64,000 bases of DNA from an uncultured Pseudomonadota bacterium (GCA_964429275.1 CAYSBJ010000001.1:201776-265775), one strand, 5' to 3'. Counted from the first letter of the stretch, positions 1,841 through 42,659 are shown. A program made the numbers and translations. The notes: a model not told the origin generated them from the letters alone.

Positions 1841-1931
1841 CAACTTCGCGGTTGTTCTCTAATAAAGGGTGCCGCTCCACTACTTACTACGCATCTGTGG
1901 GGTGGCACCCGATAGAGTTTTTGAAAGATTT

Positions 1932-2996: not shown

Positions 2997-3071
2997 TTAC
3001 ACTACATTGTCGGCAATTTTCCTCTGTGTTACTATACGCACCCCAGGCCGCCAACCCTTTTTGAGTTTTTT

Positions 3072-3758
3072 ATGAATCTTCGAAGTTTTTTTCTTGTACC
3101 TCTTTTAGTGCTTGCTGCATCATCCCTTGTTGCATCTGATGTTGCGTCTAATCAGCGTTATGTTTGGGCATCTCAAGACCTTCGGTCGCGGGTTATTTGT
3201 GAGTCTGTGGCTGACACTTCAATGTTCGTTTTTAATCCCTGCGTGAGTACTGCTTCAGGTCGGCTAGGCTCTGCGCCTATTGATTGGGCGGTTAGTCGAC
3301 TTCGAGGCTCTCATAAGTCCTTACTTGTAGCTGGTGACTATAAAATAGCGATTTTTACTTTTGCCTGCACGCGAACACTACCAATAGATGGCGATAAGGT
3401 ATTGCCTGGTGTGGTGGCAGCATATAAAAAACTTTCATCGACATATCAAAGGCTGCGGGCACCTCTTGATATTATTTTCCTTTCTAGTGGGCATAATTCG
3501 TGCTCGGAACGGAGAGAGGATTTCATTATTATTGTGACAAGGCTGAAGCTTCCTTCTGGTGTTGAGAAGAAGGCGTTCCATATTTTTACTTCTGCTGGCA
3601 AAGATGTTGGTGGCCTCTCCCCAAGAGATTTGGTAGGCGCGTTGTGCGGGGTGATCTTGGAAGATTCTGGTTTGGCGGTAATAGACCTTACGTCTTGCAT
3701 GGAAGAGGGCCCCGAGCTGGATACTTTTCTAGCGGTTCTGATGAGTAAACAGGAATAG
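3072..3758 (+). CDS. exported protein, member 1 of local 'ASD' paralog family
   Basis: Signal peptide MNLRSFFLVPLLVLAASSLVA|SD. Shares an early Cys (VICES) and an F-T-F-A-C core with the three downstream paralogs. Confidence 0.6.
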   Translation: MNLRSFFLVPLLVLAASSLVASDVASNQRYVWASQDLRSRVICESVADTSMFVFNPCVSTASGRLGSAPIDWAVSRLRGSHKSLLVAGDYKIAIFTFACTRTLPIDGDKVLPGVVAAYKKLSSTYQRLRAPLDIIFLSSGHNSCSERREDFIIIVTRLKLPSGVEKKAFHIFTSAGKDVGGLSPRDLVGALCGVILEDSGLAVIDLTSCMEEGPELDTFLAVLMSKQE

Positions 3759-3787
3759 TCGAGCGATCCCTTTTACAGAATTGAGTA

Positions 3788-3956
3788 CGCTGGACATTCT
3801 TGTGTTTTGAGATATGATATCTCGCAACAAATGTGCCACAAAGCCCTCTACAAAGGGTAATGCTCCAGGAAACGTCACGGGCGGGGTGTTATCTGAAGAG
3901 GGCGGCCGAATTAAAGTTAGACTGCCGAGTAGTTCAAAACTACTCGGCAGTTTTTT
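3788..3956 (+). repeat. conserved noncoding module, copy 1 (full length, ends in an intrinsic terminator)
   Basis: By hand alignment, 85 of 89 core positions (3831-3919) are identical to copy 3 (6492-6580). Contains the TGATATC palindrome, a GCCCTCT...AGAGGGC long-range complement and a terminator hairpin. Confidence 0.75.
3922..3956 (+). terminator. rho-independent terminator (3' end of module copy 1)
   Basis: Stem CTGCCGAGTAG / CTACTCGGCAG with loop TTCAAAA, followed by T6. Confidence 0.7.
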
Positions 3957-4156
3957 GTGTACATGATGCTCGTTTGGGGTAATCTTTACAGGCAGCTTGC
4001 ACTTTGTCTTCATAAAAAAACTACTTGTTTAAAAGTGTTTCTGTAAGATTTTACGAAAACACCATAGGGCTCCTTGTTTTGTAAAGATTGCATTGATTTC
4101 TGGCGTACATCATGAGTGAAAGGGGATAATTGAGCGGCTGTGAAAAAATCGATCTT

Positions 4157-4275
4157 CGCTGGACATCCTCCTGTGTTGCGATATGATATCTCGCAACAAA
4201 TGCGCCACAAAGCCCTCTACAAAGGGTAGTGCTCCAGGAGACGTCACGGGCGGGGTGTTATCTGTTGAAGGGGCC
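4157..4275 (+). repeat. conserved noncoding module, copy 2 (3'-truncated, no terminator)
   Basis: Collinear with copy 1 from CGCTGGACAT to GTTATCTG, then diverges into a T10 run (4284-4293), a GAGG RBS and the 4303 start codon. Confidence 0.65.
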
Positions 4276-4302
4276 ATATAGTATTTTTTTTTTGAGGTTT
4301 TT

Positions 4303-5034
4303 ATGAATTATCAACATTTTTTATCATTTTTACTTGTATTAACAGCGACAGCTCCTCTTATCGCAAGTGATGCAGTTGTGGCAGAAGAGATGTCGAGAAA
4401 GACAGAGCGCGAGATCTGCGCGGGGGGCTGGCCAGAGCATCCGATTAATAAGTTTTATGAATCTATTGGTTCTTCCGTACATGACAGGTCTGGTAAATTC
4501 GTATATGACATGTCTGGTAAATTATGGAAGGTTTTACATTGTGGCACGGGGATATTTTTTGAACTGTTGACTAAAGATAATGAACGTCTTGCTTATTTTG
4601 GACATTCTTCGGAATCCTTTGTGTTAAACGGTCCTCGGTTCGTGACAAAACAAGATTTTAGTGACGAGCATTGCTTGAACATAAAAAGCGTTAAAGCGAT
4701 CTTCGAGTCTGAGGGCATGACGATGGTGTCTGCGTTTATTGGTCAAGATTACGTGGAAGCTACAGCCCTTTACTATTTTTGTTTTGCGGAAAAAGAAGGT
4801 AAACGGTATATATTCGTTCTTCCGAGGACACATGTTGGCGGCTCTGCGCCTCGTTATTCTAGTGAGATTTCTTCGACCAGTGGTTGGTTATCTGTTGTGA
4901 GTAGAGGGCCGGGGGATTTTCGAGCCATATCTATTGTTTCTGATCTTCTGACGGGTGAAAAACTTTCAGCTCTTATACAGCCAGTAGATGAAGAGCTTGT
5001 AGTGGCAGATAGCGGGAAAGTGGATGACAATTAA
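4303..5034 (+). CDS. exported protein, member 2 of local 'ASD' paralog family
   Basis: Signal peptide ...LTATAPLIA|SD with a GAGG RBS. Family motifs EICAGGW and YYFCFAEK are present. Confidence 0.65.
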   Translation: MNYQHFLSFLLVLTATAPLIASDAVVAEEMSRKTEREICAGGWPEHPINKFYESIGSSVHDRSGKFVYDMSGKLWKVLHCGTGIFFELLTKDNERLAYFGHSSESFVLNGPRFVTKQDFSDEHCLNIKSVKAIFESEGMTMVSAFIGQDYVEATALYYFCFAEKEGKRYIFVLPRTHVGGSAPRYSSEISSTSGWLSVVSRGPGDFRAISIVSDLLTGEKLSALIQPVDEELVVADSGKVDDN

Positions 5035-5094
5035 TTTTTTGATTTGTCTCCGAACAGGCTTTGGAGATCGTATCTAAATTATTGATGTAATGGA

Positions 5095-5133
5095 GGTGCC
5101 ATGTAGTTTTGTACTGCATGGCACCTTTTTTTT
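5095..5133 (+). terminator. rho-independent terminator
   Basis: 12-bp stem GGTGCCATGTAG / CTGCATGGCACC (one G-U pair), followed by T8. Confidence 0.75.
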
Positions 5134-5146
5134 ATATTTTGTGAGG

Positions 5147-5161
5147 GCGTGTCCTCATTTC
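5147..5161 (-). repeat. IS-end-like motif, inverted copy
   Basis: The reverse complement GAAATGAGGACACGC matches GAAATGAGGGCATGC at 5202-5216 and 6752-6766. Confidence 0.3.
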
Positions 5162-5193
5162 TAAATAATCCGAGCTGGTCTCTCTCTTTGAGC

Positions 5194-5216
5194 TTGAAAC
5201 TGAAATGAGGGCATGC
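5194..5216 (+). repeat. IS-end-like 23-nt motif, copy abutting the transposase relic
   Basis: TTGAAACTGAAATGAGGGCATGC matches 6744-6766 at 22 of 23 positions. It lies about 20 nt beyond the 3' end of the relic ORF. Confidence 0.4.
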
Positions 5217-5237
5217 TGTCAAACCAAAATGATTTTG

Positions 5238-5684
5238 TCACAACTTAGCCCCACATGATTTTGTCACTTTTTCTTCATGCTTGTAGCCCATAGGTGGCTC
5301 ATCGGAAAGAAACCAGAAGGGATTTTTTGGTTTCTTCGGGCGTGTAGCATAAGGATGTGTTTTTCGAATACGCGCAATTGCCTCAATACGGGTTGCTGAA
5401 ATGGGCTTGCCTCGGACCATAAAGCAGGTTGTGCCGTCAGGGTATGTTCTGATCGTTATGTTTTCTTTGGCCTTAAGTCGAATTGATTGATCTTTGAGTA
5501 CCTGATAAAAGGCATCATAATATTGAAAAGTCCAGTCGTTTTGTAGCTGACGCGTCTCGTTAATAGTAAGTATTTCTAGCAAGTTATGTGCTCCCAGTGG
5601 GCGATTTGCATCCTCTGCCAAGAGAGGTTTTTTCTCATAGCGCTTAAGGAGTGATATTTTTATTTTGGTAGAGTTGTGACAATA
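5238..5684 (-). pseudogene. 5'-truncated transposase/integrase C-terminal fragment (IS relic)
   Basis: The frame is open only for ~148 codons with no plausible start and is bounded upstream by an in-frame TGA. The segment 'TRQLQNDWTFQYYDAFYQV...ITIRTYPDGTTCFMVRGKPI' resembles, from memory, the C-terminal beta-barrel of DDE/rve-type (ISNCY/IS481-like) transposases. Confidence 0.45.
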
Positions 5685-5820
5685 TCACGTTGGTAAGATA
5701 GGCTGAGAGCAGCAGGTTGCGCGTAGCAAGGGAAAGTTGTAGATTACTGGCTGCTCCACCGCTCTTTTTAGTTTACGTGTTATACGAGTATTTCAGTTCT
5801 TTGTTTGCCGGGAGGCCTTT

Positions 5821-6423
5821 ATGATGTTTCTATTGTTTGCGATGTTGATGCCTGTTCTTCCCCTCTTTGCCAGCGATGCTGGAGGTGCTACGGTCCGTGA
5901 AATGCCCGTGCTTTCCACCGTGCTGCGGAGCCTGGGAAAAATTGAGTGCGCTGGCTTGGAATGGCAAGTTATAACTGTACCGGAGCGCATCTGCTTGGTT
6001 TCCCACGGATCTGAGACTCCGTCTCCGCAGATAAACCTATTCGGCACGTGGGACAGCGTCTCGGGGTTGTTTTCTTGGCCGGAGATGAAGACTTTTGCTC
6101 AACGTGTGTACCGCGCGTTTGCCGAGAAGGCGAGCAATCCGGCAGTGAAGCTTCTATTTGTTATCTTCGACTTTGCCTGCAAAAAGGAATATTGTGGGAT
6201 CATTACTGCCGCAACAGGGGCTGAGGGCGTGTCTCGCTCCCACCTTCATTTTTTTGATGGGGATGCGGTCTTAATTTCAGCGACCGATTCCTTTTATCTT
6301 CTGCAACAATTGGGTCCTTACGCGGGGGGGAACGTGGTCGGGTGGGCAAGAGCAGGGTACGGCTTGGAGGATCTTCTTGCCGATCCTCTCGGCACAGCGG
6401 GGCCCTGTGCTGGCAGATTTTAG
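5821..6423 (+). CDS. exported protein, member 3 of local 'ASD' paralog family
   Basis: GGAGG RBS and signal peptide ...MPVLPLFA|SD. Family motifs IECAGLEW and VIFDFACKK are present. Confidence 0.6.
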   Translation: MMFLLFAMLMPVLPLFASDAGGATVREMPVLSTVLRSLGKIECAGLEWQVITVPERICLVSHGSETPSPQINLFGTWDSVSGLFSWPEMKTFAQRVYRAFAEKASNPAVKLLFVIFDFACKKEYCGIITAATGAEGVSRSHLHFFDGDAVLISATDSFYLLQQLGPYAGGNVVGWARAGYGLEDLLADPLGTAGPCAGRF

Positions 6424-6460
6424 CAAATTATAGCGTGTGCGGGTGGATGAGCTAGACTTT

Positions 6461-6617
6461 GCCCCATTTGGGGATGTGATATCGCCCAACGAATGCGCCA
6501 CTAAGCCCTCTGCAAAGGGTAATGCTCCAGGAAGCGTCACGGGCGGGGTGTTATCTGAAGAGGGCGGCCGAATTAAAGTTAAGCCCCCGAGTAGTTCAAA
6601 ACTACTCGGGGGCTTTT
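6461..6617 (+). repeat. conserved noncoding module, copy 3 (full length, with terminator)
   Basis: Collinear with copy 1 through the core and the terminator. The terminator stem differs by paired changes in both arms. Confidence 0.75.
6583..6617 (+). terminator. terminator hairpin of module copy 3
   Basis: Stem GCCCCCGAGTAG / CTACTCGGGGGC with the same TTCAAAA loop as copy 1. The T tract is shorter (TTTTGTGT). Confidence 0.55.
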
Positions 6618-6743
6618 GTGTAACGGCACCTTGTAGAAAACTTATTTGTGTGCCTCAAAAAATGGCGTGGAGTGGCCACCAGATTCGAAAAACTTGCCCG
6701 CAATTATAAAGTCGTTATGTATAGTGCGTGTATGATAATGTGG

Positions 6744-6766
6744 TTGAAACTCAAATGAGGGCATGC
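6744..6766 (+). repeat. IS-end-like 23-nt motif, solo copy
   Basis: TTGAAACTCAAATGAGGGCATGC. It overlaps the perfect palindrome AGGGCATGCCCT (6758-6769). Confidence 0.4.
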
Positions 6767-6825
6767 CCTAGCGGGGCCAGGACGGTTATGGTAGCCTGAG
6801 GTAGATATAACATTGGGAGACTCTG

Positions 6826-42067: not shown

Positions 42068-42256
42068 GGCGGAACGGGATACAATCAGCAGATTATTGCT
42101 CGATTGGAAGATGTCACTCTCCGCGAAAAGCATCTCAAGGCTATGACAGAAGTGGAATTGGCGGCGGCGATTGCGGTATACGAAGCGATTATTTGTGCGC
42201 TGGAAGAAGGTGAGTTGCGGGTAGTGAATTTTGTGACGAAGGTTAAAACTACATAA
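42068..42256 (+). pseudogene. start-less in-frame remnant, possibly the N-terminus of a DapD-like (THDP N-succinyltransferase) gene
   Basis: 62 open codons with no usable start. '...NQQIIARLEDV...AIAVYEAIICALEEGELRVV' recalls the E. coli DapD N-terminus 'QQLQNIIETAF...[19 protein letters not shown]'. The frame ends inside the 3' end of rnpB. Confidence 0.2.
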
Positions 42257-42659
42257 ACGGACCACGTGTAAGCTGGATTCTGTACGACTTGCGTCGTGAT
42301 AGCCATCTATCTTCGCGACAAACCCGTCAACTCTGCATCGATACAGCGTAGCGTTGACCTATTTTGTCTTGCTCCAAATGGGGTTTGCCCCACGCCGACA
42401 TTGCTGCCGACATGCGTGCGCTCTTACCGCACGGTTTCACCATTTCCGCTCACCTTGCGGTGAGTGGTTGTTTTGTTTCTGTTGCACTTTCCATGAGCTT
42501 GCGCCCTCCGCACTTGCTGGCCACGCTATAGTCACAGAATTGCCTGTAAGGGCGACGATGTGCGACGGCGGGAGGCTAATGCGGCATTTTTCGATGAGGA
42601 GTCCAGACTTTCCTCACATGCCAAAGCATGCGCGGCTATCCGGCAGACCGTTTATGTAG
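42249..42659 (-). ncRNA. rnpB: RNase P RNA, bacterial type A
   Basis: The minus strand carries GAGGAAAGUCUGGACUCC (CR-I), GUGCGGUAAGAGCGCACG, GGAGCAAGACAAAAUAGG and ACAGAAUCCAGCUUAC (CR-V). The P1 helix is formed by CUACAUAAACGG (5' end) and CCGUUUAUGUAG (3' end). Confidence 0.9.

Follow-up and report, generated by a model that had tools for sequence, protein, structure and literature searches.

A candidate family of small RNA genes formed by a repeated promoter-hairpin-terminator module in a Dependentiae-like bacterium

A 64,000-nt stretch of DNA from an uncultured, Dependentiae-like bacterium (GCA_964429275.1, CAYSBJ010000001.1:201776-265775; hereafter, the window) contains three copies of an intergenic module of ~170 nt, set among orphan genes for secreted proteins. 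All three lie on the + strand, at 3788-3955 (copy 1), 4157-4302 (copy 2), and 6450-6617 (copy 3), as the original prediction had placed them, and the 23-mer CGTCACGGGCGGGGTGTTATCTG from the module occurs three times in the window against a chance expectation of 0.00. The neighboring open reading frames (ORFs) at 3072-3758, 4303-5034, 5821-6423, and 6826-7566, together with one in a related genome (L088 3403-4113), encode proteins of 200 to 246 amino acids (aa) with signal-peptide-like N termini that end in (A/S/G)SD(A/V/R). Beyond these signal peptides, pairwise BLASTP and family scans revealed no similarity of the five ORFs to any family or to one another. Copies 1 and 3 follow their upstream ORFs by ~30 nt, with no other terminator in between; copy 1 is followed by another module, and copy 3 is followed by the remnant of an IS5 element and then ORF 6826.

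Outside 3.8 to 6.6 kb, BLASTn and two covariance models found no further module copies in the remaining 58 kb, and the only extra match of the module-core covariance model is a hairpin in an upstream ABC transporter operon, described below. When 596 Gb of genomes were scanned for exact matches to an 18-mer, 58 were returned; 57 are chance hits in GC-rich genomes and one is a true relative, a 2.7-kb contig of a "Candidatus Dependentiae" metagenome-assembled genome (MAG) that ends within the module. All 28 matches in a metagenome scan are due to chance, and a scan of viral collections gave no module match. The orthologous ABC substrate-binding protein (85% identity) led to one relative and to its longer Logan contigs, which carry a complete fourth module copy directly 3' of the ABC gene, followed by a 236-aa signal-peptide ORF unrelated to those of the window. 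With a single true relative in all searches, the data set consists of four module copies from two genomes. The public assemblies of both genomes break in or beside the module (at the end of L021, at the end of L090, 7218-7282, and in L001, which spans copy 2 to copy 3). As the repeat is longer than the assembler k-mer, such breaks are expected, and copy numbers in MAGs are under-counted.

At the gathering threshold, Rfam 15 contains no family for the module, and its only match in the window is a bacterial class A RNase P RNA (42253-42651, - strand; 217 bits). With E values up to 10 allowed over 3600-6800, weak matches driven by the terminator hairpin appear, including rdlD (22.8 versus 50 bits for gathering) and His_leader (19.4 versus 49 bits). 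The earlier impression that the module falls outside known riboswitch and small RNA (sRNA) families therefore holds at both gathering and permissive thresholds.

Anatomy and conservation of the module

Each module is headed by a predicted sigma-70-like promoter, which the original prediction had overlooked. In copy 1, this promoter (3791-3818, +) combines a -35 hexamer TGGACA (3791-3796), a 16-nt spacer, and a -10 hexamer TATGAT (3813-3818), a 10/12 match. Copy 2 has the same arrangement (TGGACA-16-TATGAT; 4160-4187, +), and the promoter of the relative (TAGACA-16-TATGAT, likewise 10/12) occupies the same position as in copies 1 and 2. A degenerate promoter-like site in copy 3 (TAGACT-16-TGTGAT; 6453-6480, +) was missed by the promoter scan and identified from the alignment. 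The hexamers differ at 4 of 36 positions versus 15 of 48 for the spacer (P = 0.036). Between copy 1 and the relative, three of the six nucleotides just after the -10 hexamer differ, followed by 95 nt without a single difference. This identity starts at the predicted +1 (~3825, ~7 nt past the -10 hexamer), which points to an RNA starting at ~3825. The palindrome GAGATATGATATCTC, previously reported for all three copies, overlaps the -10 hexamer and hence lies in the promoter, 5' of the predicted RNA; by alignment count, its arms are perfect (7+1+7) only in copy 1, with 6/7 matching in copy 2 and 5/7 in both copy 3 and the relative.

The conserved RNA core of copy 1 (3825-3919, +; 95 nt) starts at this predicted +1 with a CA-rich 5' tail of 18 nt (3825-3842). 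Both the minimum-energy and the centroid fold contain an interrupted hairpin of 22 bp (3835-3906, +), made up of two helices, P1 and P2. P1 pairs GCCCUCU (3843-3849) with AGAGGGC (3897-3903) and is extended by GCC (3835-3837) and GGC (3904-3906). The perfect complement noted before in copies 1 and 3 is exact in both (6505-6511 and 6559-6565 in copy 3). An ACAAA junction (3850-3854) and a GA bulge (3895-3896) separate P1 from P2, an inner helix of 12 bp that had gone unnoticed (GGGUAAUGCUCC, 3855-3866; GGGGUGUUAUCU, 3883-3894) and that encloses an invariant 16-nt loop (3867-3882). A 12-nt A/U-rich linker (3907-3918) then connects the hairpin to the terminator. In copy 3, the core spans 6487-6581 (+), with P2 at 6517-6528 and 6545-6556 and the loop at 6529-6544. 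Pair probabilities of P1 and P2 range from 0.76 to 1.0. Since 5 of the 12 pairs in P2 are G-U, the helix is present only in + strand RNA, and the z-score of the core fold is -2.0 on the + strand versus -0.8 on the - strand.

The flanking 3 kb of the window and the relative are 74% identical, and the two ABC genes have synonymous divergences (dS) of 0.9 and 2.2. Nevertheless, none of the 95 core positions differs between copy 1 and the copy of the relative, compared to 23 of 75 positions in their own promoter and terminator flanks (Fisher P = 7e-10). Had the module been transferred recently, it would be alike along its entire length; the contrast argues for long-term purifying selection on the transcribed core. 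As judged from this two-genome comparison, strong purifying selection has acted on the entire core, and nucleotide identity at all codon positions despite a dS of at least 0.9 is a noncoding pattern. In agreement with the earlier view, the module is not a decaying duplication.

Within the window, the core of copy 3 differs from that of copy 1 at 5 of 95 positions, four of them outside the helices, and none breaks a hairpin pair; the U-to-C change at 3834 affects only an isolated outlier pair drawn by the copy 1 fold alone. P1 and P2 are near-invariant within the modules, with a single A-U to G-U change and two P1 pairs broken in copy 2. Upstream of the copy 2 divergence, copies 2 and 3 have seven substitution sites; five are unpaired, one is the conservative A-U to G-U change, and the seventh is 3834.

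The local CCCT-CTACAA-AGGG hairpin, proposed earlier to compete for the same nucleotides, is present as sequence but finds no thermodynamic backing. At equilibrium, it is predicted to form with a probability of 0.15 in copy 2 and of 0.00 in copies 1 and 3 and the relative, and it becomes the minimum-energy fold only in nascent RNA that lacks the 3' strands. A search for pseudoknots between the loop and flanks of the core found none. Given this near-zero probability and the absence of both core-terminator pairing and a pseudoknot, a riboswitch-like switch is unsupported.

The core of copy 1 leads into a stem of 16 bp with a 3-nt loop and a U6 run (3919-3955, +; -24.3 kcal/mol). Its counterpart in copy 3 (6581-6616, +; -28.8 kcal/mol) also has 16 bp, with a GC-rich base, and was flagged on the - strand by the scan; read on the + strand, it ends in U4. 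In the relative, 13 to 14 bp precede U5. Overall, these stems of 13 to 16 bp (-16 to -29 kcal/mol), being GC-containing and followed by a U run, have the makeup of intrinsic (Rho-independent) terminators and are predicted to act as such. Among the 16 pairs aligned over three copies, 6 are changed on both sides and 3 on one side, with 100% of cells paired compared to 45 to 56% in slid controls. Copies 1 and 3 share the upper stem and loop and show paired changes in the lower stem, as originally described, and the fourth copy strengthens this observation. The two align without an indel, differing in three doubly and one singly changed pair, so that the "added pair" invoked before is not needed. 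This covariation demonstrates solely that the terminator hairpin is functional. The broader claim of selection at the RNA level is upheld by the terminator pairing, the helices confined to the + strand, and the invariant core, but not by reading terminator covariation as evidence for anything beyond a working hairpin. Among the module copies, the core itself shows no covariation, and its support comes from a diverged paralogue, described below, that the original prediction had not noticed. Taken together, the alignments and folds establish the anatomy of the module, its + strand specificity, and selection for pairing in the terminator.

Leader forms of the hairpin

Copy 2 lacks a terminator, which was overlooked in the original prediction, as was its continuation into a gene. 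It diverges from the other copies inside the 3' strand of P1 and then runs directly into ORF 4303, passing through a U10 run (4284-4293), a Shine-Dalgarno (SD) sequence GAGG (4294-4297), and the start codon ATG at 4303. Being without a terminator, copy 2 constitutes the 5' leader of this ORF (core and leader, 4194-4302, +), in which P2 is intact (4224-4235 and 4252-4263) and P1 is weakened. ORF 4303 (4303-5034, +) encodes a 243-aa orphan with a signal-peptide-like N terminus, for which protein searches and family scans found neither a homologue nor a family; an AlphaFold2 model made without an alignment has a pLDDT of 37 and is unusable. The gene ends in a terminator of its own (TGCC..GTAGTT...GGCA plus a U run; 5092-5136, +; -26.2 kcal/mol) that resembles the module terminator (78% over 27 nt). 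At their starts, ORFs 3072 and 4303 have in common a 34-nt stretch (82%) that includes a U run and the ribosome-binding site.

A diverged paralogue of the core hairpin lies at 1857-1922 (+), downstream of a 52-aa ORF and upstream of the second ABC substrate-binding gene, with the hairpin at 1857-1917 and a U5 run at 1918-1922 that ends 15 nt before the ABC start codon. Its elements follow the order CUCUA, AUAAA, a P2 of 14 bp, a 16-nt loop, GA, and UAGAG, followed by U5. The architecture common to the paralogue and the module comprises CUCU(A), A[C/U]AAA, GGGU...GCUCC, the 16-nt loop, GGGGUG..., GA, and (U)AGAG. In the middle of P2, AAU/GUU of the module is replaced by the Watson-Crick pairs GCC/GGC, and G-C pairing takes the place of G-U pairing in the module.

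A covariance model built from module cores only retrieves this paralogue as its best nonself match in the window (25.3 bits, E = 2.3e-4) and recovers the orthologue in the relative (E = 4e-5), while background scores elsewhere reach at most ~17 bits. On 616 kb of unrelated loci, which are biased upwards because they were chosen for an 18-mer contained in the model, the best score away from the 18-mers is ~14 bits. All five pairs substituted between the two leader orthologues remain paired, and the fold of the paralogue has a z-score of -5.35. The core hairpin and the ABC leader hairpin are thus paralogous.

The stretch at 1785-1937 is ~92% identical to its counterpart in the relative (L091 4985-5135), though the flanking genes have a dS of 0.9 to 2.2. 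Its fold has a small hairpin first and then a long one with a U run, making it a candidate attenuator. A T-box leader was rejected, as the resemblance of GGGGUGGCACCC is merely that of the 3' strand of a perfect hairpin, and no T-box match was obtained even at E values up to 10 over 1600-2000 or 3600-6800. The ABC leader stretch has no match in Rfam. Upstream, an extended -10 element TGTTATAAT is found at 1768-1776. The 52-aa ORF between the two ABC substrate-binding genes (1682-1840, +) has a strong ribosome-binding site (GGAGGA) and a hydrophobic N-terminal half, and its stop codon overlaps the first hairpin of the leader. In the relative, this ORF is 55 to 61 aa long and keeps the C-terminal motif DI(K/Q)ESISVVQSKRASLNK.

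Candidate functions of the module

We favor the reading that the modules are a small family of sibling sRNA genes, each made up of a promoter, a hairpin RNA of ~130 nt, and a terminator, and assign it a probability of roughly 0.45. In each full module (copies 1 and 3 and that of the relative), the sigma-70-type promoter would start the RNA at the position equivalent to ~3825. The transcript would consist of the 18-nt single-stranded CA-rich tail, the P1 and P2 hairpin with its 5x2 internal loop, the A/U linker, and the terminator. Copy 2 would represent the same promoter and RNA after loss of the terminator and fusion as a leader to ORF 4303. The sRNA family shares descent with the hairpin that still lies in cis ahead of the ABC gene. 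In trans, the RNAs could act either through their invariant unpaired parts on mRNA or as decoys for a protein that binds the related leaders. We infer promoter activity, an RNA end at the hairpin, and an action in trans. In line with a stand-alone sRNA gene, a predicted promoter lies upstream of the conserved RNA, and the RNA appears to enclose no functional ORF. An sRNA derived from a 3' untranslated region, as suggested originally, would be compatible with copies 1 and 3 lying just past an ORF with no intervening terminator; an autonomous small transcription unit fits better because each module carries its own promoter.

Several observations weigh against this reading. The case for the module as a transcription unit is drawn from sequence evidence only, and the -10 hexamer of copy 3 (TGTGAT) is poor. 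Stems, loops, and linkers are alike letter-perfect, which is unusual for a base-pairing sRNA. A target search against 58 translation-initiation regions in the window gave no convincing hit, with unrelated genes ranking highest, and the 7 bp (GUGCCAC) by which the 5' tail matches the 3' strand of the ABC leader are at chance level. The core helices show no covariation within the module family, owing to there being just four copies from two genomes. Across five distinct sequences that include the paralogue, P2 is 100% paired with two double and four single changes, which speaks for the hairpin, but this alignment was structure-fitted and leans towards pairing. Finally, copy 2 and the paralogue in the ABC operon are both 5' leaders, suggesting a role in cis.

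Such a cis role underlies an explanation that we consider unlikely, in which the promoter drives the downstream secreted-protein gene, the hairpin is a sensor or factor-binding site, and the terminator is read through conditionally, copy 2 being always on. Copy 2 is literally a 5' leader, the paralogous hairpin and its U5 run directly precede an ABC gene, and the ORF of the relative starts 66 nt after the module terminator with no -35/-10 promoter in between by consensus scan. Against this, an extended -10-like motif, GTGT[T/G][A/C]TACTAT (TGnTACTAT), occurs ~45 to 50 nt upstream of ORF 3072 (3027-3035) and of the 236-aa ORF of the relative (L088 3346-3354), in the latter case between terminator and ORF, so that the downstream gene need not rely on read-through. 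In addition, copy 1 precedes another module rather than an ORF, and the 16-bp stems of -24 to -29 kcal/mol look constitutive. Leader- and riboswitch-derived sRNAs, such as prematurely terminated leaders that work in trans, and transcription attenuators (surveyed in PMC2965389) likewise combine a promoter, a conserved structured leader, and a terminator. The module differs from them in having neither a multihelix junction nor a loop-flank pseudoknot and in that its terminator is set apart from the hairpin by the linker instead of overlapping it. As the terminator arms have changed fully while the core has not, no conserved antiterminator pairing is possible either.

Less likely still would be a promoter and terminator shell that is reused and spread by local duplication or recombination, ending the upstream ORF and serving as promoter or insulator for what lies downstream, with the core kept for a function at the DNA level, for example as an operator or nucleoprotein site. 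The modules lie ~1 to 30 nt past the stop codon of the upstream ORF with no other terminator in between, they flank nonhomologous ORFs, and the unit of ORF 4303 resembles the same shell enclosing an ORF. Reused, putatively mobile promoters are documented as similar upstream regions beside nonhomologous genes within and across genomes (Nijveen, Matus-Garcia and van Passel, PMC3575422). In contrast to these, the most conserved part of the module is its transcribed 95 nt and not the promoter, and most copies carry a terminator and not a gene. A promoter and a terminator need no 95 invariant bases between them, yet it is the promoter spacer and the terminator arms that drift; the G-U-dependent helices exist only in + strand RNA, and the palindrome at the -10 hexamer is not conserved. 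A further idea, which we regard as quite doubtful, takes the hairpin (P1, the A[C/U]AAA and GA internal loop, P2, and the 16-nt loop) as the recognition element of an undescribed Dependentiae RNA-binding regulator or ligand. It would act in cis at the ABC gene and ORF 4303, with the ORF-less, terminator-capped copies as decoys that titrate the same factor. If true, this arrangement would allow an obligate intracellular parasite to link nutrient uptake with the expression of its fast-evolving secreted (host-directed) proteins.

The remaining explanations have little to recommend them. That the module is a small mobile repeat resembling a miniature inverted-repeat transposable element (MITE) or a REP or Correia element, and has recently entered both genomes, seems very unlikely to us. 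It would account for the module being present after the ABC gene in the relative and absent from that junction in the window, for the adjoining IS5 and ISNCY remnants, and for the assembly breaks. REP/BIME, Correia, and ERIC elements are repeated extragenic hairpins that lie just after ORFs and can end or stabilize upstream transcripts, as in the module. Unlike these, the module is undispersed: its three copies in the window are confined to 3 kb, the other 58 kb contain none, and 596 Gb of genomes gave a single match, while the metagenome and viral collections gave none. It also has its own promoter and a G-U-dependent helix restricted to one strand, and it shows neither terminal inverted repeats nor target duplications. 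A recent spread also predicts near-identity of the whole element, whereas the flanks differ by 31% and the core by 0%.

Equally hard to sustain, and if anything more so, is a small protein, either the called ORF of 50 to 61 aa (3814-3966) or a peptide of 22 to 40 aa from AUG 3860. Gene callers do report an ORF over the module in the assemblies of the relative, and the AUG-3860 frame of copy 2 opens with GUG and closes with a UGA overlapping the start codon of ORF 4303. However, the start at 3814 falls within the -10 hexamer and has no usable SD sequence, while AUG 3860 is buried in P2, only 2 nt from GGG. The C-terminal halves vary in length and sequence and cross the terminator hairpin, where changes compensate pairing and not amino acids. 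There are no synonymous changes despite the divergence of the neighboring genes, and searches of 1.8 to 5.8 billion proteins returned only the same locus (five samples) and no other homologue. The small-protein reading was rejected.

Hardly credible at all is a recombination or diversification site, such as an integron attC-like site or the template and variable repeats (TR/VR) of a diversity-generating retroelement (DGR). Unrelated ORFs in the same orientation are indeed separated by a conserved repeat, 6 of 7 distinct substitution sites fall at an A of copy 1, and a GTTRRRY-like heptamer (GTTAGAC, GTTAAGC, or GTTAAAT), which recalls the R' core site of integrons, marks the point where the copies cease to be identical (3916-3922, 6578-6584, and L088 3300-3306). 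Pfam and NCBIfam scans of one 52-aa ORF and of the ORFs of at least 120 aa in ~1-19.3 kb (from ~3.8 kb upstream to ~12.7 kb downstream of the modules) found no integrase or reverse-transcriptase family. The R''/R' pairing of attC sites is absent, and RYYYAAC occurs only in copy 3. The copies are intergenic rather than, as expected of a DGR, at the 3' ends of target genes, and most of the substitutions at A are to G and fall in unpaired, A-rich stretches. The integron, DGR, and MITE readings were rejected, as the defining features of attC sites, TR/VR pairs, and MITE/REP elements are missing.

Among known systems, the sibling sRNA families Qrr, LhrC, and NgncR_162/163 (PMC4211561) are likewise clustered, near-identical units, each with a promoter and a Rho-independent terminator, and, as in the module, they open with a single-stranded 5' region, fold an internal hairpin, and have an A/U-rich stretch ahead of the terminator. 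The module differs in being invariant over the whole 95-nt body and not in a seed alone, in that one copy is the 5' leader of an ORF, and in lying outside Rfam. It looks like a new, lineage-restricted, and fairly ordinary kind of bacterial sRNA or leader.

The main interest of the module lies in the extreme conservation of its core and in the coexistence of leader and gene-less forms; if it were only a terminator and promoter shell, it would be a routine repeat. A leader-hairpin family whose members include cis leaders as well as gene-less units running from promoter to terminator hints at a route by which sRNA genes may arise. The Dependentiae (TM6) are a phylum of protist parasites, mostly known from metagenomes. 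Our literature search on this phylum found no paper on regulatory RNAs in it. The 95-nt core, identical across species whose neighboring genes are synonymous-saturated, is a strong candidate for the first lineage-specific regulatory RNA in the Dependentiae, at a location where secreted, presumably host-directed, genes are gained and lost.

Genomic surroundings of the modules

The gene island around the modules turns over fast and differs entirely between the window and the relative. No structured folds were obtained ahead of ORF 3072, ORF 5821, or the ORF of the relative. The tetranucleotide GTGT, which begins the extended -10-like motif, is also found 3' of the terminators of copies 1 and 3.

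Directly after the terminator of copy 3 lies the C-terminal remnant of an IS5-family transposase (6624-6758, +; NCBIfam E = 1.8e-9, profile positions 218-258 of 258). The end of this element, TTGAAACT[G/C]AAATGAGGGCATGC, is repeated at 5189-5216, 6739-6766, and 11187-11214, with shorter remnants after the terminator of ORF 4303 and near 11.2 kb, and insertions appear to fall right behind terminator hairpins. An ISNCY-family transposase has left a C-terminal fragment on the opposite strand, a 127-aa ORF (5238-5621, -; E = 5.9e-8, profile positions 289-364 of 368) flanked by a 30-nt inverted repeat with 80% identity (5216-5245 and 5672-5701).

In the full 64 kb, ARAGORN found no tRNA or transfer-messenger RNA gene. 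The GC skew is positive in every 2-kb bin of the window, and the G+C content of 42 to 52%, which is rather high for Dependentiae, peaks around copy 3 and ORF 6826.

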